Shown here piece after piece: positions 21,548 to 34,708 of a stretch of DNA of 64,000 bases. Position numbers and translations under genes: made by a program. Source of the DNA: Dehalococcoidia bacterium (GTDB lineage Bacteria > Chloroflexota > Dehalococcoidia > UBA2979); NCBI GenBank assembly GCA_050248355.1, contig JBFWSN010000005.1, forward strand, positions 37,476-101,475, given 5' to 3'. The notes beneath the pieces were generated by a model. It did not search any database. It was not told where the DNA came from and saw nothing but the letters and a program-made list of their open reading frames with translations. Positions within the stretch are counted from its first letter, which is position 1. Each line of letters begins with the position of its first letter.

Positions 21548-22072
21548 TTACGGCCGCCACCAGCCGGGGCCCGCGAGCACCTCGATGCCCGGGGGATCGA
21601 CCTCATCGAGGAGGTCGCGGGCGGTGCGGTGAAGGAGGGGGTGCTCGATGTCGGGGGTCACCTCGGCGAGCGGGACGAGGACGAACGCACGCTCGTGGAG
21701 GCGGAGATGGGGGACCGTGAGATCGGGGTCGTCGATGACTTCGCCTTCGATGAGCAGGATGTCGATGTCGACGGGGCGGGGGCCGTTGCGGACGGTGCTG
21801 AAGTCCCGTCCGCGCTCCGCCTCGATGCGCTTGCAGAGGCGGAGCAGCGCGTGCGCATCGAGGGCGGTGCGCGCCTCGACGGCGATGTTGACGAAGCGGG
21901 GCTGATCCTCGATGCCCCAGGGCGGCGTCTCGTAGACAGACGAGACCGCCTCGATGGCGACGCCCGCGGCCTCGAGGGCATCGAGCGCGGCGCGCAGGTG
22001 GGCGGTGCGGTCACCGAGGTTGCCGCCCAGGGCGAGCCAGACCCGGCGCTCGTGATCTGCTCGTGTGGTCAT
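21548..22072 (-). CDS. folK: 2-amino-4-hydroxy-6-hydroxymethyldihydropteridine pyrophosphokinase (HPPK)
   Basis: 174 aa: LALGGNLGDR...YETPPWG...DIDIL...HLRLHERAFVLVPL. Confidence 0.9.
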   Translation of the reverse strand: MTTRADHERRVWLALGGNLGDRTAHLRAALDALEAAGVAIEAVSSVYETPPWGIEDQPRFVNIAVEARTALDAHALLRLCKRIEAERGRDFSTVRNGPRPVDIDILLIEGEVIDDPDLTVPHLRLHERAFVLVPLAEVTPDIEHPLLHRTARDLLDEVDPPGIEVLAGPGWWRP

Positions 22073-22923
22073 CGGGGCGGGCTCCAGCCGCGGACGACGG
22101 CGTCCGCCATACTCGCGACATCGGCCATGGCGCGGACATCGTGGACTCGCACAATGTCCACGCCGGCCTGCACAGCGAGGGCGACCGTGGCGGCGGTGCC
22201 CCAGAGGCGGTCGTCCTCGGTGCGGTCGAGCACAAGGCCCAGCGTCGATTTGCGGGACGTGCCGAGAAGCAACGGGCGGCCGACGCCGCGCAGCTCGGCG
22301 AGGCGTCGCAGCAACTCGAGGTTCTGCGCGGGCTGCCAGCCAAAGCCGAAGCCAGGGTCGAGGATGAGCATCCGCTCGTCGACGCCGGCGTCGCGGGCCA
22401 GCCGGAGCGACTCCTCGAAAGCCGCGCGGACGTCGGCGATCACATCGCCCGTCGAGGGGCGGCCACGCTGGTTGTGCATGAGCACGGCAGGCCGTCCGGA
22501 GGCGGCGAGCGCCGCCGCCATGCGGGCGTCGCCGCGCAGGCCGTTCACATCATTCAGAGCGTCCGCGCCCGCCTCGAACGCCCGCGTGGCGACCTCCGCC
22601 TTCGACGTGTCGACGGACAGCGGCACGTCGACGGCCGCGCGGACGGCGCGCAGGACCGGGCCGAGGCGGGCCCACTCCTCCTCGGCGGTCACGACCGCGG
22701 CGCCCGGGCGGGTGGACTCCGCACCGAGATCGAGGAGGTCGGCACCGTGCTCGACCATGCGGGCGGCCTGCTCGGCGGCGCGCGCGGGATCGAGGACGCC
22801 GTCGCCGGAGAACGAGTCGGGGGTGACGTTGAGGATGCCCATGACGTAGGTGCTCGCACCCCACGCGAACGTGCGGCCGCCGATGCGGATGGGGGCGGGG
22901 CAGGGCGGACAGTCGGGGGCCAT
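22069..22923 (-). CDS. folP: dihydropteroate synthase
   Basis: GILNVTPDSFSGDG...LLDLGAESTRPGA... pterin-binding TIM barrel. Overlaps folK by 4 nt. Confidence 0.9.
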   Translation of the reverse strand: MAPDCPPCPAPIRIGGRTFAWGASTYVMGILNVTPDSFSGDGVLDPARAAEQAARMVEHGADLLDLGAESTRPGAAVVTAEEEWARLGPVLRAVRAAVDVPLSVDTSKAEVATRAFEAGADALNDVNGLRGDARMAAALAASGRPAVLMHNQRGRPSTGDVIADVRAAFEESLRLARDAGVDERMLILDPGFGFGWQPAQNLELLRRLAELRGVGRPLLLGTSRKSTLGLVLDRTEDDRLWGTAATVALAVQAGVDIVRVHDVRAMADVASMADAVVRGWSPPR

Positions 22924-22933
22924 CGAGACCAGC

Positions 22934-23371
22934 CTACACGACCTCGATCGGCTCCTCGATGACGTGGGGAGTCTCGCGGACGATGCGCCAGGCGCGGACA
23001 GACGGCGGCTCCTCCGCCAGCGACACGAGGATGTAATAGGCCTCCGGGTACATGAAGAGGCCGCTCTCGATCTCGCCGGGAGGGAAGAATGCCTGGCGGA
23101 TGTCGGTCATCGAGGGACGCGCCTCGGACGCGACGTGGGAGTGGTAGATCGCGAACAGCTGCTCGCCAGACTCGTCGCGCTGCCGCTCCAGGCGGGCCAC
23201 TTCGAGGCCGTCCATCTCGTAGCGGTACGGGCTGGCAGTGGTGTTCTTGACGCGGTGGACGGCGATCGGGACGCCATCGCGTGAATGGACCATGCCGCAG
23301 GCCTCATTGGGGAGATCGTCCCGGGCGTGGGCGACCATCTCGTCGATCAGGGCGCGAGGAATGCGCGGCAT
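22934..23371 (-). CDS. JAMM/MPN+ metalloprotease (Mec+-like, CysO/MoaD C-terminal peptidase)
   Basis: JAMM motif E...HSHVASEARPSMTD. Start at the internal MPRIPRALIDEM with a GGGAG SD. Sits in the sulfur-carrier island. Confidence 0.8.
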   Translation of the reverse strand: MPRIPRALIDEMVAHARDDLPNEACGMVHSRDGVPIAVHRVKNTTASPYRYEMDGLEVARLERQRDESGEQLFAIYHSHVASEARPSMTDIRQAFFPPGEIESGLFMYPEAYYILVSLAEEPPSVRAWRIVRETPHVIEEPIEVV

Positions 23372-23449
23372 CGTGACTCCCGAGTCGTGCGCGGCCATGT
23401 GGGCTCGATTGTGCGGCGCGGGAGCGCTGCTCGCCACGGTCTGCGGGCG

Positions 23450-23923
23450 TCAGGTGTCCCGACAGGCGTCGTGCGCAGATGGCCAGGGCTCGGCGTTGTC
23501 GAGCACCTCGAAGCAGTCGTCCGAGATCGGAACCTGGACGATGACGATCTCGGGGCCGGACCTGGTCGTGCCCCGGCCGAGCACGACGCCCTCCGCGGGT
23601 ACGCCCGTGCAGAGGCCTTCCGACGTGAGCGTGACTCCGTCCGGTGGCCGGCACTCGGCGGGGGGGACGAAGCCGACTGACGCGGCGTACTTCGAGGGGA
23701 TGACCTCGATGCGGAACATGCGGAACCCTGAACTCGTGCGGTAGGTGGCATAGACCAGCGCCGAGGAACCATCGGCGGATGGCTCGCCCGGCGTACCAGC
23801 GATCACCTCGGGAGTGACGGCCGAGGGACTGCGATCGGGGGTGGTGAACGAGAGACCGGCGGCGAAGGCTGCGAGGAGGATGAACAACCCCAGGCCGACG
23901 ACGACGACCGCGCCCGGCTTCAT
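23450..23923 (-). CDS. membrane-anchored secreted protein with 4 conserved Cys, unknown function (paralog A)
   Basis: 157 aa. N-terminal TM/signal anchor and a conserved core ADGSSALVY...YAASVGFVPPAECRPPDG...IVIVQVPI..CF.VL....WPS..D.CR shared with the adjacent paralog. Confidence 0.5.
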   Translation of the reverse strand: MKPGAVVVVGLGLFILLAAFAAGLSFTTPDRSPSAVTPEVIAGTPGEPSADGSSALVYATYRTSSGFRMFRIEVIPSKYAASVGFVPPAECRPPDGVTLTSEGLCTGVPAEGVVLGRGTTRSGPEIVIVQVPISDDCFEVLDNAEPWPSAHDACRDT

Positions 23924-24079
23924 CGGCTATCCCTCACAGGATCCTTTTCCCGCCCACGTACAGAGGCCGCCCGTCGGTCATGCCGGCGGGGTGCGGCATC
24001 CTCATCCGGGCGGTGGCGTGTAGCGATGCCGGCTCGATTGTCAGGTGCCAGAGCGCTGGTCGCCACGACTCCGGGCGAG

Positions 24080-24550
24080 TCAGGACTCGCGGCAGCCGTC
24101 GAGCTCGGAGGGCCAGCGGTCGCCCTCCTTCAGTACGTCGAAACAGCGCGCGAAGATCGGAACCTGCACGATGACCAGGGCGTGACCGGAACTCAGCGTA
24201 CCGCTTCCGACGACCTCGCCGGCGGCGGGGATCCTGGCGCACGGCCCCTCGGCGAGGAGCGCTGCGTCCTGATCAGGGAGGCAGCCGGCGGGCGGCACGA
24301 AGCCGACGGAGGCAGCGTAGTCCGCCGCGACCAGCTGGAGGCCGAACAGGCGAAGCCCGGCGTTGGTGCGAAGCGTGCCATACACGAGCGCCGAGGAGCC
24401 ATCGGCAGGCGGTTCGGCCGGGCCATCGACGGCCGTGGCGGGTCCGCTTCCAGACGAGGTCTCAGTGCCGGTTACGGTGACGCCCGCGGCGAGCAGCCCA
24501 CCGATGACCACCACCACCAGCCCGACGACGATGATCGCCCCGGACTTCAT
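24080..24550 (-). CDS. membrane-anchored secreted protein with 4 conserved Cys, unknown function (paralog B)
   Basis: Start at the internal MKSGAIIVVG, also 157 aa. About 45% identical to paralog A over the whole length, with the same four Cys. Confidence 0.5.
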   Translation of the reverse strand: MKSGAIIVVGLVVVVIGGLLAAGVTVTGTETSSGSGPATAVDGPAEPPADGSSALVYGTLRTNAGLRLFGLQLVAADYAASVGFVPPAGCLPDQDAALLAEGPCARIPAAGEVVGSGTLSSGHALVIVQVPIFARCFDVLKEGDRWPSELDGCRES

Positions 24551-24575
24551 CGCGAGGACGGGCCTGCTGCTTCTC

Positions 24576-24962
24576 TCACGTCCACTGCTGCGCTTCGCCG
24601 TCGTCGATGCAGGCCGCGCCCGCAAGGCGCATGCGGAGAAAGTTGAAGCTGGCGGGCTCGATCACCAGATGCTCGACCCAGTGGGCGCGCTCGGCCTCGG
24701 GGAGACGATCGATGAGGTCCTCGAACGGCACTTGCACCTCGGTGTCCTCGGCGGCGATGCCGACATCGAGCGACCATCTGCCCGGGAACGACACGCGGCC
24801 GACGGTGCGCGTGCGGATGAGACTCGCGCCTCGCTCGCGGTAGCGGTCCATGACGGAGGCCTGGAAGCGGAGAATCAGGCGGCCCGAGTCCTTCGACGCG
24901 AAGGCGCGGGTCAGCAGCAGACGCTGCAGCGCCGCGGTGACGGCCGCCTGGTCCTCATCCAT
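24576..24962 (-). CDS. hypothetical protein
   Basis: 128-aa ORF with balanced composition, same strand as its neighbours. No motif recognised. Confidence 0.4.
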   Translation of the reverse strand: MDEDQAAVTAALQRLLLTRAFASKDSGRLILRFQASVMDRYRERGASLIRTRTVGRVSFPGRWSLDVGIAAEDTEVQVPFEDLIDRLPEAERAHWVEHLVIEPASFNFLRMRLAGAACIDDGEAQQWT

Positions 24963-24984: not shown

Positions 24985-25809
24985 CTACTTCTCGACGGGA
25001 ACGCCGATCAGCGAGCCATACTCGGTCCAGGAGCCATCGTAGTTCTTCACATCGCTGTAGCCGAGGATGTGCTTCAGCACGAACCAGGTGTGCGACGAGC
25101 GCTCACCAATGCGGCAGTAGGCGATGGTAGGCGTGCCCTCCTGGACGCCCGCATCCCCGTAGAGGGTCTTGAGGTCCTCGGGCGACCTGAACGTGCCGTC
25201 CTCATTGACGGCGCGCGCCCAGGGAATGTTCTTCGCGCCGGGGATGTGGCCGGCGCGCTGCGCGGTCTCCGTCATGCCGGGTGGGGCGATGATCTCGCCG
25301 TTGTACTCGGCCGGGCTACGGACATCGACGAGCTGGCTCGCGGCGCCGCCGACGGCCTGCAGCACCTCGTCGCGCTGGGCGCGCAGGGCCGGATTCGCGT
25401 CCTTCGCGGCGTAGCTCGTGGTCGGGTAGCTCGGTACGTCGGTAGTCGTGGGGCGGCTGTCGGCCATCCACTTCAGCCGGCCGCCGTCCATGAGCGAAGC
25501 ATGCTCGTGGCCGTACAGCTCGAGGAGCCACAACGCGTACGCAGCGAACCAGTTGTTGTTGTCGCCGTAAAGCACGACGTGCGTGTCGTTGTTGATGCCC
25601 GAGGCGCTCAACAGCTCCTCGAGGCCAGCCTTCGAGATGATGTCGCGCTGGACCTGGTCCTGGAGCTGCGTGGTCCAGTTCCAGCCCACGGCGCCCTCGA
25701 TGTGGCCCGTGCCGTACGCCTCAGTGTCGACGTCGACCTCGACGAGGCGCACGTTGGGGTCCCCGCTGTGCTCGGCGACCCAGTCAACGGTGACGAGTTT
25801 GTCGGTCAT
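24985..25809 (-). CDS. thiosulfate / 3-mercaptopyruvate sulfurtransferase (tandem rhodanese domains)
   Basis: Two rhodanese domains with active-site CRIGERS in the second. Strong SD AGGAGGAAG. Confidence 0.85.
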   Translation of the reverse strand: MTDKLVTVDWVAEHSGDPNVRLVEVDVDTEAYGTGHIEGAVGWNWTTQLQDQVQRDIISKAGLEELLSASGINNDTHVVLYGDNNNWFAAYALWLLELYGHEHASLMDGGRLKWMADSRPTTTDVPSYPTTSYAAKDANPALRAQRDEVLQAVGGAASQLVDVRSPAEYNGEIIAPPGMTETAQRAGHIPGAKNIPWARAVNEDGTFRSPEDLKTLYGDAGVQEGTPTIAYCRIGERSSHTWFVLKHILGYSDVKNYDGSWTEYGSLIGVPVEK

Positions 25810-25928: not shown

Positions 25929-26864
25929 TTACCACCACAGCTTGGTGCCGACGTCCTCCTCGATGTTGTCGTAATCCTGGGTCCAGAGGCCGGACGAAAG
26001 GTACTTCCAGCCGCCGTCCGCGAGGAGACAGACGATGTGACCCTCGTCCATGCGCTCGGCCACCTTCTGGGCGGCGCGGACGGCCGCGCCGCTCGAGATG
26101 CCGGCGAAGACGCCGGCCTTCGCGGTCAACTCGCGCGTCGTACGGAACGACGTGCGGGAGTCAACGACGATGCGGCCGTCGAGGACGGACTCATCCAGGA
26201 CGGGCGGGATGTAACCCTCCTCGAGGCTGCGCAGCCCCTGCACGAGGTCGCCTGGATGGGGCGCGGCAGCGACGATGCGCACGTTCGGGTTGTGCTCCTT
26301 GAGCCGGCGGCCGACCCCGGTGAGGGTGCCGCCGGTGCCGAGGCCGGCGACGAAGACGTCGACTTCGGGGCAGTCGGCGATGATCTCCGGTGCTGTGGTC
26401 TCGTAGTGGGCACGCGGGTTGTCGCGATTTTCGTACTGGAACGGCATGAACCAGTCCGGGTGCTCGGCGTGGACCTGCCGCGCCATCTCGACGGACCCGT
26501 TGGTGCCGAGGTCGCCGGGGGAGTAGATGATCTCGGCGCCGAACGCGCGCAGGATCTCGACACGCTCCGGGCTGACGGCGTCCGGCATGACCACCTTCAC
26601 GGGGTAGCCTCGGAGCTGGCCGATCATGGCCAGGGCGATACCGGTGTTGCCGGACGTGGGCTCTAGGATGGTCTGGCCGGGACGCAGCCGCCCCTCGCGC
26701 TCCGCGGACTCGACCATGTACTTCGCGATCCGGTCCTTGACCGAGCCGGTGGGGTTCTGGCCCTCGAGCTTCACGTAGATGTGCACGGAGGGCTTCGGCG
26801 AGAGCACAGCGACCTCGACGAGCGGCGTGTTGCCGACCATGTCGAGCATGCTGCGGTAGAGCAT
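25929..26864 (-). CDS. cysM: cysteine synthase B-like (CysM, likely CysO-thiocarboxylate dependent)
   Basis: PLP fold type II: GNTPLVE...[10 protein letters not shown]...TSGNTG...GLGTGGT. Start at the internal MLYRSMLDMVGNTPLV. Lies 10 nt after the cysO stop. Confidence 0.85.
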   Translation of the reverse strand: MLYRSMLDMVGNTPLVEVAVLSPKPSVHIYVKLEGQNPTGSVKDRIAKYMVESAEREGRLRPGQTILEPTSGNTGIALAMIGQLRGYPVKVVMPDAVSPERVEILRAFGAEIIYSPGDLGTNGSVEMARQVHAEHPDWFMPFQYENRDNPRAHYETTAPEIIADCPEVDVFVAGLGTGGTLTGVGRRLKEHNPNVRIVAAAPHPGDLVQGLRSLEEGYIPPVLDESVLDGRIVVDSRTSFRTTRELTAKAGVFAGISSGAAVRAAQKVAERMDEGHIVCLLADGGWKYLSSGLWTQDYDNIEEDVGTKLWW

Positions 26865-26874
26865 CGGGTGCGTC

Positions 26875-27150
26875 CTAGCCGCCAGCGAGGGCGGGCAGGA
26901 TGGAGACCTGGTCGCCGTCCTTGAGCGCCGTGTCCGCGCCGCCGAGGTAGCGGATGTCCTCGTCATTCAGGTAGATGTTCACGAAGCGGTGGAGCTGTCC
27001 GGAGCCGTCCATGATCTGCGAGCGAAAGCCGGGGTAGCGGCGCTCGATGTCCTCAATGAGCTCGGCGACCGTCGAGCCGTCGGCGGCGAACTGACGCTGA
27101 CCGTCGACGGCCTTTTGAATCACTGACGTGACATGCACCTGCACCGACAA
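26875..27150 (-). CDS. cysO: sulfur carrier protein CysO/MoaD/ThiS family (beta-grasp, C-terminal GG)
   Basis: ...IEDIERRYPGFRSQIMDGSGQLHRFVNIYLNDEDIRYLGGADTALKDGDQVSILPALAGG*. Start is uncertain: TTG at 27150 or GTG at 27144 follows an AGAGGGGG SD. Confidence 0.75.
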   Translation of the reverse strand: MSVQVHVTSVIQKAVDGQRQFAADGSTVAELIEDIERRYPGFRSQIMDGSGQLHRFVNIYLNDEDIRYLGGADTALKDGDQVSILPALAGG

Positions 27151-27237: not shown

Positions 27238-28398
27238 CTAGTGGTGGGCGGCCCCCGTCGCGCCGGGCGCGACGAGCGGGGGCGAGCCGCAGAACTGGTC
27301 GTAATCGATGAGCTCCGTGACCGTCGGGTGGTCGCCGCAGAGCGGGCACTCCGGGTCACGGCGCAGCTTCATGGTGCGGAACTCCATCGTCAACGCGTCG
27401 ACGAGGAGGAGGCGCCCGACGAGGGGCTGGCCGATATCGAGCACCTGCTTGAACACCTCGGTGGCCTGGATCGAGCCGATGATGCCGGTGATCGCGCCCA
27501 GGACGCCGGCCTCTGCGCAGGACGGCACGAGGCCGGGGGGCGGCGGCGTCGGGTAGAGGCAGCGGTAGCAGCCCTGACCGGGCTTGAAGACGGTCGCCTG
27601 GCCGTCGAAGAGCAGGATGGAGCCATCGACGAGCGTCTTGCCGAGCAGGTAGCAGGCGTCGTTCACGAGGTAGCGCGTGGCGAAATTGTCCGCGCCGTTC
27701 ACGACGTAGTCGTAGTCGCGGATGATCTCCATCGCGTTGTCCGAGGTGATGGGGGCCTCATGCTGGCGCACGGTGACATGCGGGTTGTAGGCGTTCAGCG
27801 TCTCGACGGCGGACTGCATCTTCGTCTTGCCGACATCCTCGGTCTGGTGGAGCAGCTGCCGCTGGAGGTTCGAGAGGTCGACGGTGTCGAACTCGACGAT
27901 GCCGACCGTGCCCACGCCGGCGAGCGCAAGGTAGATCGCGACGGGAGAGCCGAGACCGCCCGCGCCGACGATGAGGACCTTCGCGTTGCGGAGCTTGCGC
28001 TGCCCGGTGGGCCCGACCTGGCCCATGATGATGTGCCGCGAGTAGCGCATGACTTCGTCGGGCGAGAGGGCGGCCGGGTTGCCGGCCGGCGTGTGCCCAT
28101 TCGTGGCGCCGTCGGCGTCCGGGGCGCCGCCCGCGAGCGCGGGGATGACCGCGACCTGGTCACCGTCGGCGACCGTGGTGTCCGTGCCGGAGAGGTCGTG
28201 AATTTCCTGGTTGTTCACGTAGATGTTGATGTGCGCCGGGATGGTGCGCTCGCGGTCGTAGACAAGGTTGCCGAAGCCCGGGTAGCGCTCGTCGACGGCG
28301 TCGAGCACTTCGGCGACGTTGCGGCCCTCGACCGACACATACTCATGGTTCTGCGTCAGACGCCGGAATGGCGAGGGGATGTAGACGCTCACGGCCAT
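27238..28398 (-). CDS. MoaD/CysO-like beta-grasp domain fused to an E1-like ThiF/MoeB adenylyltransferase
   Basis: Residues 1-91 form a MoaD-like domain ending ..VAVIPALAGG. A linker and the ThiF/MoeB domain follow (VLIVGAGGLGSPVAIYLALAGVG, catalytic CYRC, zinc CxxC at ECPLCG). Confidence 0.85.
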   Translation of the reverse strand: MAVSVYIPSPFRRLTQNHEYVSVEGRNVAEVLDAVDERYPGFGNLVYDRERTIPAHINIYVNNQEIHDLSGTDTTVADGDQVAVIPALAGGAPDADGATNGHTPAGNPAALSPDEVMRYSRHIIMGQVGPTGQRKLRNAKVLIVGAGGLGSPVAIYLALAGVGTVGIVEFDTVDLSNLQRQLLHQTEDVGKTKMQSAVETLNAYNPHVTVRQHEAPITSDNAMEIIRDYDYVVNGADNFATRYLVNDACYLLGKTLVDGSILLFDGQATVFKPGQGCYRCLYPTPPPPGLVPSCAEAGVLGAITGIIGSIQATEVFKQVLDIGQPLVGRLLLVDALTMEFRTMKLRRDPECPLCGDHPTVTELIDYDQFCGSPPLVAPGATGAAHH

Positions 28399-29388: not shown

Positions 29389-29832
29389 TCAGATCGAGTA
29401 GCTCGCGACGGCGGAGCGCAGGCGCTCGCGCTCGCGGGCGGCCAGGTCAGCCAGCGACACGGCGGCAAGCCGCGCGCGCATGTCATCGTAGATTTCGCGC
29501 CAGACCCACTGCTGGGCGCAGACGGAATGCGGCTCTCCGGAGTCGTCATCCTCGAGGCAGGGCATCGGGGCGAGCGAGCCTTCGAGGCTCTCGAGGACGT
29601 GCAGCAGACAGATCTCCTCGGGCGGCCGGGTGAGCTGATGGCCGCCGCCCGGGCCACGGGTGCTGCGCACGAACCCGTCACGGCGAAGCTGCGCGAGCAG
29701 GTGGTCGAGGTAGGACTCGGGGATGTGCTGACGGCGGGCGATCTCGGTGCGCTGCACCGGACCTTCGCTGCCGTACATGGCGAGGTCGATCAGCGCGCGC
29801 ACGCCGTAATCGCCCTTGGTACCGATGTGCAT
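29389..29832 (-). CDS. Rrf2 family transcriptional regulator (CymR/IscR-like)
   Basis: Start at the internal [18 protein letters not shown], the Rrf2 N-terminal wHTH. It lies directly downstream (same strand) of cysK and neighbours a second winged-helix gene on the other side, consistent with Cys-metabolism regulation. Confidence 0.8.
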
Positions 29833-32898: not shown

Positions 32899-33174
32899 CT
32901 ACCCGCCCGCCACAGCAGGGACGATGGAGACCTCGTCGCCCTCCTTAAGGGCGCTGTCGAGGCCGCTCAGGAAGCGCACGTCCTCGCCGTTCACGTACAC
33001 GTTGACGAAGCGGCGCAACGAGCCGGAGTCGTCGCACAGGCGCTCGCGCATGCCCGGAAACTCGGTCTCGAGGTGCTGAACGAGCTCACCGAGGGTCGCG
33101 CCCTGGCCGGGTACCGTGTCGCGGTCGCCGGTGAGCGTGCGCAGCGGGGTGGGGATCTTCACGTTGATGGGCAT
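32899..33174 (-). CDS. MoaD/ThiS-family sulfur carrier protein (MetO-like), C-terminal GG
   Basis: Start at the internal MPINVKIPTPLRTL...FVNVYVNGEDVRFLSGLDSALKEGDEVSIVPAVAGG*. Last gene of the operon with the ThrC-like enzyme. Confidence 0.75.
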   Translation of the reverse strand: MPINVKIPTPLRTLTGDRDTVPGQGATLGELVQHLETEFPGMRERLCDDSGSLRRFVNVYVNGEDVRFLSGLDSALKEGDEVSIVPAVAGG

Positions 33175-33209: not shown

Positions 33210-33455
33210 TTAACCCTCGACGACGTCGCCGAGGAGCGGGTCGACTCGTACGCCTTTGGCCTCGGCCCAATGGATGCCGCGCTCGATCTCCTCCGGCTCG
33301 CCCTCGAGCTCGAGGACGACCCAGCCGACCTGCTCGTCGACATCCGCCATCCGGATGTTGGTAACGATGCGGAACTCGTGGCCGAGCTGGTAGATGAACG
33401 GCTCCCGGATAAGCTGCGGCTCAAAGGTGAAGCGGACGCGCTTCGTGGCCATCAT
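33210..33455 (-). CDS. small NIL/ferredoxin-fold-like protein (81 aa)
   Basis: MMATKRVRFTFEPQLIREPFIYQLGHEFRIVTNIRMADVDEQVGWVVLELEGEPEEIERGIHWAEAKGVRVDPL. Its start overlaps the ThrC-like stop (ATGA), implying translational coupling. Confidence 0.5.
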   Translation of the reverse strand: MMATKRVRFTFEPQLIREPFIYQLGHEFRIVTNIRMADVDEQVGWVVLELEGEPEEIERGIHWAEAKGVRVDPLLGDVVEG

Positions 33456-34708
33456 GCACCTCCCACGCCGGCGCCGACCGCCTCGCGGCTGGCCAGCGCT
33501 TCATCGAACGAGGCCTGGTTCGCGGAGACGCGAAGCGGTGCGGTGAGCTTGCCCTGCACCGCCTCGATGGTCTTGAGGCCGCCGCCGGTGATGAAGGCGA
33601 CCGTTTCCTCGCCGCGGCGGATGGCGCCACTCTCGACGAGCCGCTTGAGGCACGCGATAGTCACGCCGCCGGCGGTCTCGGCGAAGATACCCTCCGTTTC
33701 GGCGAGGAGCTTCACGCCCTCGACGATCTCATCGTCGGTCGCGGCTTCGGACCCGCCCTGCGTCTCCTCCATCACCTTGAGTGCATAGTACCCGTCCGCG
33801 GGATTGCCGATGGCGAGTGAGCGGGCGATGGTGTTGGGCTTCTGCGGCACGAAGTTCAGCGTGTGGTTCTCGAAGGCGGTAGTGATCGGCGAACAGCCGC
33901 GCGCCTGCGCCCCCGACATGCGGGTGTGCGGCTCCTCGATGAGGCCGGCCTTGTGGAACTCCTGAAAGCCCTTCCAGATCTTGGTGAAGAGGGAGCCCGA
34001 GGCCATCGGGGACACAACGTGATCCGGGGCACGCCAGCCGAGTTGCTCGGCGACCTCGTAGGCGAGAGTACGGGATCCCTCGGCGTAATAGGGGCGGACG
34101 TTGATGTTCACGAAGGCCCACCGGCGCGAGCCGGCAACCTCGGTGCAGAGGCGGTTCACGTCGTCGTACGAACCGTCGACCATCACGAGGGTGGGGTCGT
34201 AGATCGCGCTCCCAACGACCTTGCCCTCCTCGAGGTCGTGCGGAATGAAGACGTAGGCCGGCATACCCGCAGCGGCGGCGTGCGCCGACACCGAGTTGGC
34301 GAGGTTGCCGGTGCTCGCACAGGCCATCGCCTCGAAGCCGAACTGGCGCGCACGGGCGATGGCGATGCTGACCACTCGGTCCTTGAACGACCAGGTGGGG
34401 TTCACCGTGTCGTTCTTGATCCAGAGCGTGTCGAGGCCGAGGCGCTTCGCCAGGCGGTCGGCGCGAATGAGCGGCGTGTACCCCGTGCCGAGGTCGACCC
34501 GGTAGTCCGGGTCGCACGGGAGGAAGGGCGCGTAGCGCCAGATGGTGGGCGGCCCGGCCTCGATGGAGTCACGGGAGACCGCCTCACGGATGCCCTCGAG
34601 GTCATAGGCGACTTCGAGGGGCCCGAAGCAGAACTCGCAGGAGAAGATGGGGTTGAGTGGGTACTCACGACCGCACTCGCGACAGCGCAGGGCGGATTCA
34701 AACGACAT
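33452..34708 (-). CDS. threonine-synthase-like PLP enzyme with N-terminal zinc ribbon (MetM-like candidate O-phosphohomoserine sulfhydrylase)
   Basis: 418 aa: N-terminal C-x2-C...C-x2-C ribbon and the PLP lysine motif SFKDR in a ThrC fold. Co-operonic with a MoaD-GG carrier and a NIL-like protein, and preceded by a SAM-I-like riboswitch. Confidence 0.85.
   Translation of the reverse strand: MSFESALRCRECGREYPLNPIFSCEFCFGPLEVAYDLEGIREAVSRDSIEAGPPTIWRYAPFLPCDPDYRVDLGTGYTPLIRADRLAKRLGLDTLWIKNDTVNPTWSFKDRVVSIAIARARQFGFEAMACASTGNLANSVSAHAAAAGMPAYVFIPHDLEEGKVVGSAIYDPTLVMVDGSYDDVNRLCTEVAGSRRWAFVNINVRPYYAEGSRTLAYEVAEQLGWRAPDHVVSPMASGSLFTKIWKGFQEFHKAGLIEEPHTRMSGAQARGCSPITTAFENHTLNFVPQKPNTIARSLAIGNPADGYYALKVMEETQGGSEAATDDEIVEGVKLLAETEGIFAETAGGVTIACLKRLVESGAIRRGEETVAFITGGGLKTIEAVQGKLTAPLRVSANQASFDEALASREAVGAGVGGA

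Follow-up and report, generated by a model that had tools for sequence, protein, structure and literature searches.

In the window, the whole 64,000-nucleotide stretch of DNA that we analysed, one minus-strand ORF encodes a sulfur-carrier domain and an E1-like adenylyltransferase as a single protein. The frame reads from 28398 down to 27241 and is closed by the TAG codon at 27240-27238. Residues 87-91 of the protein are A-L-A-G-G, the codons of Gly90-Gly91 lie at 28131-28126, and the frame passes from Gly91 into Ala92 without a stop. The first-pass annotation had described a carrier (residues 1-91, ending in ALAGG), a linker and a ThiF/MoeB domain on one chain, and both Pfam and codon reading confirm this architecture; the annotation gave no strand. 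The fusion and its parts are laid out as follows:

27238..28398, minus strand: Ubl-linker-E1 fusion ORF, 386 aa plus the TAG stop, a CysO-type Ubl with a MoeB/ThiF-type E1
28126..28398, minus strand: Ubl (beta-grasp sulfur-carrier) domain, residues 1-91, Pfam ThiS, ending in I-P-A-L-A-G-G
28069..28125, minus strand: linker, residues 92-110 (APDADGATNGHTPAGNPAA), with the putative cleavage site Gly91|Ala92
27283..28068, minus strand: E1-like adenylyltransferase domain, residues 111-372, Pfam ThiF

The neighbouring genes of the window are the following:

29389..29832, minus strand: Rrf2-family regulator that heads the gene string, also found in L001-L003
28434..29372, minus strand: CysK, scoring above the equivalog cut-off of TIGR01139, immediately upstream and 35 nt away from the fusion
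26875..27150, minus strand: standalone CysO-like carrier, 91 aa, TTG start, ending ALAGG-stop
25929..26864, minus strand: CysM-like PLP cysteine synthase, above the cysKM subfamily cut-off only
24985..25809, minus strand: two-domain rhodanese sulfurtransferase
22934..23437, minus strand: JAMM/MPN+ metalloprotease, probable start 23371, candidate for the cut after Gly91
32899..33174, minus strand: third carrier, free and MetO-like, ending AVAGG-stop
33452..34708, minus strand: ThrC-like PLP enzyme with an N-terminal zinc ribbon (MetM-like)
33210-33455: NIL-domain ORF, after the MetM-like gene

The carrier, the E1, the PLP cysteine synthase and the JAMM protein are all encoded on the minus strand within 22.9-29.4 kb, and the gene order CysK followed by the fusion is repeated in L001-L003, the loci of the window's Chloroflexota group. 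The standalone CysO and the JAMM gene that the first-pass annotation had claimed are both present on this strand. The JAMM protein matches Pfam Prok-JAB (E 5.9e-20) and has the full EACG...HSHVASEARPSMTD motif (E...HSHx7SxxD); its gene is not adjacent to the fusion and lies about 3.8 kb downstream. A scan of 21.5-30.5 kb for promoters and terminators gave no signal above the shuffled background and carries no information on operon structure.

Anatomy of the fusion protein

Residues 7-91 of the fusion match ThiS (PF02597) with an E-value of 1.7e-12 and a score of 48.1 bits against a cut-off of 22.5. The nearest solved relatives of the Ubl in a sequence search of the PDB are the CysO-type chains 4n6e_B (8e-12) and 3dwg_C (6e-10). 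The domain belongs to a diverged branch, with 30-35% identity to fused Ubls from other phyla and 37% identity to the standalone CysO-like carrier of the window. The fused Ubls of other phyla are closer to the window's MetO-like carrier than to its fused Ubl.

The C-terminal part matches ThiF (PF00899) at residues 119-352 with an E-value of 4.3e-81. The GAGGLG nucleotide loop (145-150) and the RYSRH arginine-finger helix (118-122) are invariant in homologs. CYRC (277-280), CPLC (351-354) and Cys294 are invariant in 116 sequences and match their MoeB equivalents. Cys294 aligns with the Cys of TCVEAGV in E. coli MoeB (1jw9), to which the domain scores 197 bits. It corresponds to the conserved crossover-loop Cys of this E1 family. 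What the first-pass annotation called a Zn CxxC pair is really two CxxC motifs, CYRC and CPLC, as in a tetracysteine zinc site. With a score of 300.7, the E1 passes the cut-off (266) of PRK05690, the NCBIfam MoeB subfamily model, and it stays below the equivalog cut-offs for MoeB (PRK08762, 385.7 against 449), MoeZ (PRK07878, 368.7 against 647) and the SAMP-E1 UbaA (327.7 against 450). No rhodanese domain is found on the fusion chain by Pfam, and the protein stops about 30 aa past CPLC. The separately encoded rhodanese is likely the persulfide donor, replacing the E1-fused rhodanese of most relatives.

Adenylation by an E1 requires a free C-terminal carboxylate on the carrier, which is established E1 chemistry. 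As encoded, Gly91 is internal and peptide-bonded to Ala92, and the fusion therefore has no free Gly carboxylate for adenylation or thiocarboxylation. The premise of the first-pass annotation that the GG carboxylate is blocked unless the fusion is cut is sound on these grounds, and a free carboxylate on Gly91 could be attained only by proteolysis.

The AF2 prediction, made for the fusion monomer, contains two confident domains with a pTM of 0.64. Within the Ubl, residue blocks 1-50 have a pLDDT of 84-92, those of 51-80 one of 79-89, and block 81-90 has 67. Residues 88-108, with a pLDDT below 50, are predicted to be disordered. Because of this disorder and the pTM value, the model suggests that the junction is exposed, without confident docking. 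The GG is kept in 115 of 116 close homologs and in all 40 fused loci, which span many phyla. Conservation of the Ubl tail (residues 83-91) is 94%, and the mean pairwise identity of the linker is 24%. The linker is of low complexity as well as long and disordered; it varies from 9 to 39 aa, the shortest linkers (9-10 aa) being those of L002 and L003, and the distance from GG to RYSRH is 10-35 aa in close homologs. The P1' residue among the 116 close homologs is Ala in 98 (84%), Ser in 15 and Asp in 3, and never Cys.

Fused, split and E1-only loci

Relatives have split versions in the same gene order, as might be seen if the fusion were a sequencing or assembly artefact of one genome (a frameshift, a misassembly or a lost stop joining two neighbours). 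We consider such an artefact ruled out for practical purposes, since both Pfam domains are listed by 119 clusters among the best 120 (69-98% identity), which come from many independent assemblies, and the junction frame is continuous in 40 species-representative genomes from several phyla. The one exception among the best 120 clusters is P0008 (462 aa), which lists PF00899 alone. Fusions within a single ORF are present as well in Acidobacteriota, Gemmatimonadota, Bacteroidota, Verrucomicrobiota and Thermoplasmata archaea, and most often a rhodanese follows at their C-terminus. The Ubl-E1 fusion is confirmed as real and widespread, not rare.

The locus set comprised 40 fused loci (those of the species-representative genomes), 32 split loci and 8 E1-only loci. 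Loci were called fused or split by inspection of the junction; the tblastn alignments crossed in-frame stop codons in 16 of them. Fused and split states interleave among close relatives. The E1 of the fused locus L017 is 92% identical to that of the split locus L039, and the E1 of L009 is 86-87% identical to those of L054 and L059. Residues beyond GG are present in 28 of the 32 split carriers (1-8 residues in 25, 12 or more in 3), and the remaining 4 end at GG. Because most split carriers have such residues after GG, the carrier lineage appears, from its sequences, to be made generally as a precursor that needs trimming.

JAMM linkage and probable release of the carrier

Of the 40 fused loci, 37 have a JAMM gene no more than 6 kb away, compared with 21 of the 32 split and 1 of the 8 E1-only loci. 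Typically it is found directly upstream and overlaps the start of the fusion, in the order PALP > JAMM > Ubl-E1-Rhd; PALP > JAMM > Ubl-E1 is a conserved order across other phyla. The JAMM calls were made by iterated jackhmmer over all ORFs (tblastn with the window JAMM reached just 22 of the 40 fused loci), and at five loci, one of them archaeal, they were confirmed by Pfam. The E1-fused rhodaneses were called from Pfam on representative proteins; the jackhmmer rhodanese model overlooked these domains. By Pfam, P0140 has JAB-ThiS-Rhodanese-ThiF on one chain, and its GG is kept. P0251 appears to be JAB-Ubl-like-ThiF-Rhodanese, also with the GG, its Ubl-like segment being read from the sequence without a Pfam call. 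The CysO pathway requires the JAMM in any case, for cysteine release, and therefore co-occurrence alone is not proof of processing.

Outside L001-L003, the fused Ubl is the sole Ubl found beside the JAMM gene and also beside the cysteine synthase, which 31 of 37 loci have, and therefore it must be the working carrier there. The CysM of the thiocarboxylate pathway depends on O-phosphoserine and accepts the carrier thiocarboxylate. As for the PLP partner in the window, its two PLP enzymes are about equally similar (about 42-46% identity) to the PALPs found upstream in other phyla.

We consider it probable that the fusion is the precursor of a thiocarboxylate sulfur-transfer system, with the carrier freed by the JAMM of the island. 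Release by the JAMM, which the first-pass annotation had proposed, is favoured at the sequence level by the invariant GG next to a variable linker, the JAMM linkage of the fused loci, the interchange of fused and split states, the tailed split carriers, P0140 and apparently P0251. The sequences show the domain anatomy, the pattern of conservation, the gene neighbourhoods and the fused/split polymorphism, whereas we infer that the fusion is cleaved, which protease does it, how the sulfur flows and which PLP enzyme takes part, as follows. Translation would give a CysO-type carrier tied to its own E1 by a flexible linker, as in a polyprotein. The Mec-type JAMM would cleave the Gly91-Ala92 bond and leave a carrier with a C-terminal Gly-Gly carboxylate. 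The freed E1, presumably a dimer like MoeB, would then adenylate this carboxylate, and persulfide from the separately encoded rhodanese would convert it to the carrier thiocarboxylate. From the thiocarboxylate, a PLP cysteine synthase would make cysteine, and the JAMM would recycle the carrier. The two free carriers, CysO-like and MetO-like, are probably served by this E1 and this JAMM as well.

Alternatively, the fused Ubl may be a permanent, uncleaved domain, while the free CysO-like and MetO-like proteins carry the sulfur. It could act as a pseudo-substrate or autoinhibitor in the carrier site of the E1, or as a scaffold for CysK/CysM or for E1 assembly. Two free carriers that end in GG are found in the window lineage, and therefore the fused carrier is not strictly required there. 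In the same lineage, the JAMM gene is non-adjacent and the fused Ubl belongs to a diverged branch, both of which count against the precursor model. However, within the clade the GG and the tail are the most conserved part of the domain. This is what one would predict for the end of a carrier or for a site of cleavage, although the tail of a pseudo-substrate could be conserved too. L003, a Chloroflexota locus whose Ubl belongs to this branch, carries the fusion, and no free carrier was found in the 12.7 kb recovered from it. The loci of other phyla have no nearby carrier besides the fused Ubl, and the free switching between fused and split forms in close relatives fits an obligatory tether poorly. 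We therefore regard a permanent domain as unlikely.

Cleavage by something other than the JAMM of the island, either a housekeeping peptidase acting in the disordered linker or self-processing, is in our view highly unlikely. The long, disordered and low-complexity linker would suit a peptidase. For the MoaX protein of M. tuberculosis, processing is ascribed to "an as yet unidentified protease", and in E. coli the protein is cut, though at the wrong place (PMC4326299). Non-specific cuts in the linker would, however, leave extra residues, whereas exact exposure of Gly91 is required. JAMM proteins are proven to cut after a carrier GG (PMC8832034, PMC3227635), and the tight adjacency of the JAMM gene and the single-chain arrangement of P0140, and apparently of P0251, also argue for the JAMM. 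As for self-processing, Ser or Thr at P1' in 17 of the 40 fused loci could in principle permit an N-to-O acyl shift. The P1' residue is nevertheless mostly Ala and never Cys, and therefore an intein-like acyl shift cannot be general. We rejected intein-like self-cleavage as a general mechanism for this reason, and the "self-priming E1" considered in the first-pass annotation finds no support.

Another possibility is that the fusion is an E1 zymogen, in which the tethered carrier, or its linker, blocks the adenylation site and the JAMM cut is a regulated switch. We consider this quite unlikely, and we know of no described proteolytic on-switch for an E1 in bacteria or eukaryotes. If it were true, one cut would free the carrier and turn on the E1 shared by the three carriers of the island, and the switch would control cysteine and homocysteine synthesis.

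Relation to known systems and implications

The island resembles the CysO-CysM-Mec+-MoeZR thiocarboxylate cysteine pathway of M. tuberculosis (Burns et al., 2005; PMC3227635), in which Mec+ hydrolyses the CysO-Cys adduct at the bond directly after the CysO GG (PMC3227635), a bond of the same kind as Gly91-Ala92. Both have a GG-ended CysO-type carrier, a MoeB/MoeZ-type E1, a PLP cysteine synthase and a JAMM. In contrast to M. tuberculosis, the window carrier is the N-terminus of the E1, and the E1 has no C-terminal rhodanese such as that of MoeZR, with a separate two-domain rhodanese instead. Further genes of the window island encode a second CysO, which is free, as well as a bona fide CysK and a pair resembling MetM/MetO.

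Fusions of a carrier to a pathway partner are known to be cleaved. MoaX, a MoaD-MoaE fusion of M. tuberculosis, must be cleaved at Gly82|Ser83 for function (PMC4326299). DRJAMM cleaves the MoaD-MoaE protein of D. radiodurans (DR2607), and HvJAMM1 cleaves linear SAMP1 fusions including SAMP1-MoaE (PMC8832034). The window fusion shares with these proteins a GG-ended carrier joined through its GG to a pathway partner, and an encoded JAMM. Its partner is the activating E1, however, and not a sulfur-accepting synthase subunit, and its cleavage is a prediction.

Ubl-E1 fusions were catalogued by Iyer, Burroughs and Aravind, who proposed JAB release of fused ThiS/MoaD (Iyer et al., 2006), and "Ubl-E1-TBP ... 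shared with bacteria" was noted later (Makarova and Koonin, 2010). The catalogued fusions likewise place the Ubl on the N-terminal side of the E1 Rossmann domain, often with a solo carrier in the operon, and operon type 4c (ThiS/MoaD + E1-rhodanese + JAB + cysteine synthase) matches the relatives of the window (Iyer et al., 2006). The window fusion is therefore a known arrangement, and the novelty implied by the first-pass annotation was overstated, as both the architecture and the idea of JAMM release were published in 2006 and 2010. The same catalogue contains a C. jejuni-type Ubl-ThiF, found in thiamine operons without JAB, whose Ubl is "distinct from ThiS" and a predicted non-carrier (Iyer et al., 2006). 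The family in the window differs from this type in being CysO-like, GG-invariant and JAMM-linked, with a Ubl that matches PF02597 and CysO structures. The neighbours of the window fusion are cysK, cysO, cysM, rhodanese and JAMM rather than thiG/thiC/thiE, and the one feature shared with the C. jejuni type is a co-occurring solo carrier. In the literature searched, we found no experimental study of a carrier-E1 fusion, nor of the cleavage of any Ubl-E1 fusion.

The QbsE/QbsD and HcyS/HcyD systems have carriers with short C-terminal extensions that are trimmed by JAMM proteases. For the MetO pathway, Mec is needed for the maturation of MetO (GapMind 2026 preprint). The split relatives of the window fusion follow the logic of these trimmed carriers, in which maturation precedes activation, as 25 of the 32 have GG plus 1-8 residues and are found beside a JAMM gene, whereas in the window fusion the extension is the whole 295-residue E1.

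Release by the JAMM would be an outcome that specialists expect. If the precursor model is right, the family would be a widespread prokaryotic parallel to ubiquitin precursors, present in many bacterial phyla and some archaea, in which the modifier is freed by a JAMM/Rpn11-type protease ahead of E1 activation. The E1 as the fusion partner would guarantee 1:1 production and immediate hand-off. The family would then inform how the Ubl-E1-DUB triad came to be connected before eukaryotes. In practice, tools such as GapMind that annotate thiocarboxylate-dependent synthesis of cysteine and methionine should seek carriers inside genes labelled "MoeB".

The carrier-E1 fusion and its gene string

The fusion is a single minus-strand ORF of 386 aa running from 28398 to 27241 (stop 27240-27238), in which the carrier is joined to the E1 through GG as the first-pass annotation had described; the strand is added here. 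The carrier domain ends in IPALAGG (glycine codons 28131-28126), and Ala92 follows without a stop or frameshift. An assembly or sequencing artefact as the source of the fusion was excluded. Pfam matched residues 7-91 to the ThiS/MoaD family (E 1.7e-12) and residues 119-352 to a ThiF-family E1 domain (E 4.3e-81), and detected no rhodanese domain in the fusion. The solved structures nearest to the fused carrier domain (Ubl) are the CysO-type carriers 4n6e_B and 3dwg_C, the latter being M. tuberculosis CysO, deposited under the name cfp10A; for the E1 part, the nearest is E. coli MoeB (1jw9). The cysteine and CxxC pair attributed to the E1 are present as Cys294 and two CxxC motifs (277-280 and 351-354), alongside a GAGGLG loop and an RYSRH helix, and all are invariant in 116 homologs. 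The fusion passes the MoeB subfamily cut-off of NCBIfam and none of the equivalog cut-offs. Its nearest database protein, from a Dehalococcoidia MAG, is 98% identical.

The fusion lies within a co-directional string of genes, listed here in order:

Minus strand, Rrf2 regulator
Minus strand, CysK, passing the cysK equivalog cut-off
27238-28398, minus strand, the fusion
Minus strand, free CysO-like carrier of 91 aa, ending ALAGG-stop, 37% identical to the fused Ubl
Minus strand, CysM-like PLP enzyme
Minus strand, two-domain rhodanese
23450-24962, minus strand, three ORFs between the rhodanese and JAMM genes, without Pfam family matches: a 128-aa ORF (24576-24962) and two paralogous proteins that appear N-terminally membrane-anchored (24080-24625 and 23450-23923)
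Minus strand, Prok-JAB (JAMM) protease with the full E...HxHx7SxxD motif
22069-22923 and 21548-22072, minus strand, the folate genes folP and folK

The folate genes, surprising neighbours for a sulfur-carrier protease, start only 10 nt past the JAMM gene. A second set lies about 4.5 kb upstream of the string:

33452-34708, minus strand, ThrC-like PLP enzyme with an N-terminal zinc ribbon
33210-33455, minus strand, NIL-domain ORF
32899-33174, minus strand, third CysO/MoaD-like carrier, free, ending AVAGG-stop

This set resembles the newly reported MetM/MetO thiocarboxylate pathway that converts O-phosphohomoserine to homocysteine, in which carrier maturation needs Mec (GapMind 2026 preprint), and NCBIfam models may therefore have mislabelled the ThrC-like enzyme as "threonine synthase". 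The window is thus a sulfur-carrier island, holding three carriers and a single E1, JAMM and rhodanese.

Architectures and conservation of the junction

Both Pfam domains (ThiS and ThiF) were found in 119 of the 120 best protein clusters, which are 69-98% identical to the fusion and come chiefly from Chloroflexota/Dehalococcoidia MAGs. We also scanned species-representative genomes by tblastn and classified the best 80 loci, taking into account in-frame stops spanned by the alignments: 40 are single-ORF fusions, 32 are split into adjacent Ubl and E1 genes, and 8 carry the E1 only. Full-length matches among these loci extend to Acidobacteriota, Gemmatimonadota, Bacteroidota, Verrucomicrobiota, Elusimicrobiota, Eisenbacteria and Thermoplasmata archaea. 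Most fusions beyond Chloroflexota have the arrangement ThiS-ThiF-Rhodanese and a length of about 480-520 aa. In the 50%-identity library, P0130 is arranged ThiS-Rhodanese-ThiF and P0140 carries JAB-ThiS-Rhodanese-ThiF on one chain, with GG kept at the Ubl end. Pfam identified P0251 as JAB-ThiF-Rhodanese and missed a Ubl-like segment that we read from its sequence between JAB and E1 (...LLATSGG followed by MDVD), again with GG kept. In P0140, and apparently in P0251, the protease is thus physically tied to its presumed substrate. At two Chloroflexota loci (L033 and L050), an E1 69-71% identical to that of the window has no fused Ubl, in the order Rrf2, E1, CysM-like, and no carrier gene was detected near it, so the fusion is not fixed even inside Chloroflexota.

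The junction P-A-[LIVM]-A-G-G is kept in 115 of 116 close homologs, where P1' is Ala (98), Ser (15) or Asp (3) and 10-35 residues rich in A/G/P/D/S separate GG from RYSRH. Pairwise identity averages 94% over the tail (residues 83-91), 81% over the E1, 66% over the entire Ubl and 24% over the linker. Across phyla, GG is kept in all 40 fused ORFs, with P1' being A in 16, S in 15, V in 3, T in 2, and K, N, R and D in one each, and never Cys. An AF2 model of the fusion (pTM 0.64) has both domains confident and residues 88-108 at pLDDT <50, which points to a flexible, exposed junction without confident inter-domain docking.

JAMM linkage and probable release of the fused carrier

Within a distance of 6 kb, a JAMM gene is present at 37/40 fused, 21/32 split and 1/8 E1-only loci. 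At fused loci it is mostly directly upstream and overlaps the fusion start, in the order PALP, JAMM, Ubl-E1-Rhd; Pfam confirmed the JAMM neighbourhood at five loci, including the archaeal one. Among the best 80 loci, the fused ones that do not belong to the Chloroflexota group of the window (L001-L003) showed no Ubl other than the fused one beside the JAMM gene and, where a cysteine synthase is present (31 of 37), beside that gene too. The fused Ubl must therefore be the working carrier there, which is chemically impossible unless the blocked carboxylate of Gly91 is freed.

Compared by E1 identity, fused and split loci are interspersed among close relatives, which argues for the functional equivalence of the two forms. 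The E1 domains of L017 (fused) and L039 (split), both Acidobacteriota species representatives, are 92% identical, and those of L009 (fused) and L054 or L059 (split) 86-87%. The Ubl of L017 is fused via a 39-aa linker, whereas in L039 the carrier gene stops after GGV and the E1 has its own start about 350 nt further downstream; fusion or fission must have happened very recently here. Only 4 of the 32 split carriers end exactly at GG, and 28 continue beyond it (25 by 1-8 residues, 3 by at least 12; for example GGD*, GGAA*, GGNGDR* and GGSCADGE*, the asterisk marking the stop). As a rule, carriers of this lineage are thus produced in precursor form, with the fusion as the extreme case. Several tails contain Cys (GGRPLRCACS*, GGSSCCR*, GGLNLRCICR*, GGC* and the last example above), at L018, L019, L041, L055, L061, L074 and further split loci, where the E1 gene immediately follows that of the Ubl; this could be chance, a linker remnant in another frame, or functional.

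We infer that the fusion protein is probably a precursor. The Mec-type JAMM would cut Gly91|Ala92, the E1 would adenylate the freed carrier, the separately encoded rhodanese would serve its thiocarboxylation, and a PLP cysteine synthase would use the product before JAMM recycles the carrier. An uncleaved regulatory or pseudo-substrate Ubl seems unlikely, though least so in the window's lineage. In its favour, the window's JAMM gene is about 3.8 kb from the fusion, two free carriers are present and the fused Ubl belongs to a diverged branch; however, GG is invariant within the clade, a Chloroflexota relative (L003) has a fusion without a free carrier nearby, and fused and split forms interchange.

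For the precursor model, precedents exist: JAMM (Mec+) hydrolyses the bond after the GG of CysO in the CysO-cysteine adduct (PMC3227635), DRJAMM cleaves MoaD-MoaE and HvJAMM1 cleaves linear SAMP1 fusions (PMC8832034), and the fused carrier of MoaX needs a cut after GG (Gly82|Ser83) to work (PMC4326299). The documented JAMM reactions are of exactly the type needed at Gly91|Ala92. Cleavage by another protease or by self-processing is less likely still, since GG has to be exposed exactly and P1' is Ala. The main interpretation of the first-pass annotation, release of the fused carrier by JAMM, is supported by inference.

Relation to catalogued architectures

N-terminal Ubl-ThiF fusions, in operons also with solo ThiS, and the operon type "ThiS/MoaD + E1-rhodanese + JAB + cysteine synthase", including Solibacter, Salinibacter and Chloroflexus, were described by Iyer, Burroughs and Aravind (2006), and Ubl-E1 fusions common to archaea and bacteria by Makarova and Koonin (2010). 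The 2006 paper already put forward that JAB releases fused ThiS/MoaD. Our literature search turned up no experiments on a carrier-E1 fusion. The window gene therefore belongs to a catalogued architecture whose hypothetical mechanism is of long standing. Quantitative support for that mechanism is added here by the invariance of GG, the adjacency of JAMM, the interleaving of fused and split forms, the precursor tails and the four-domain fusions. Within this architecture, the Chloroflexota branch is one in which the rhodanese domain was lost and additional free carriers were acquired.
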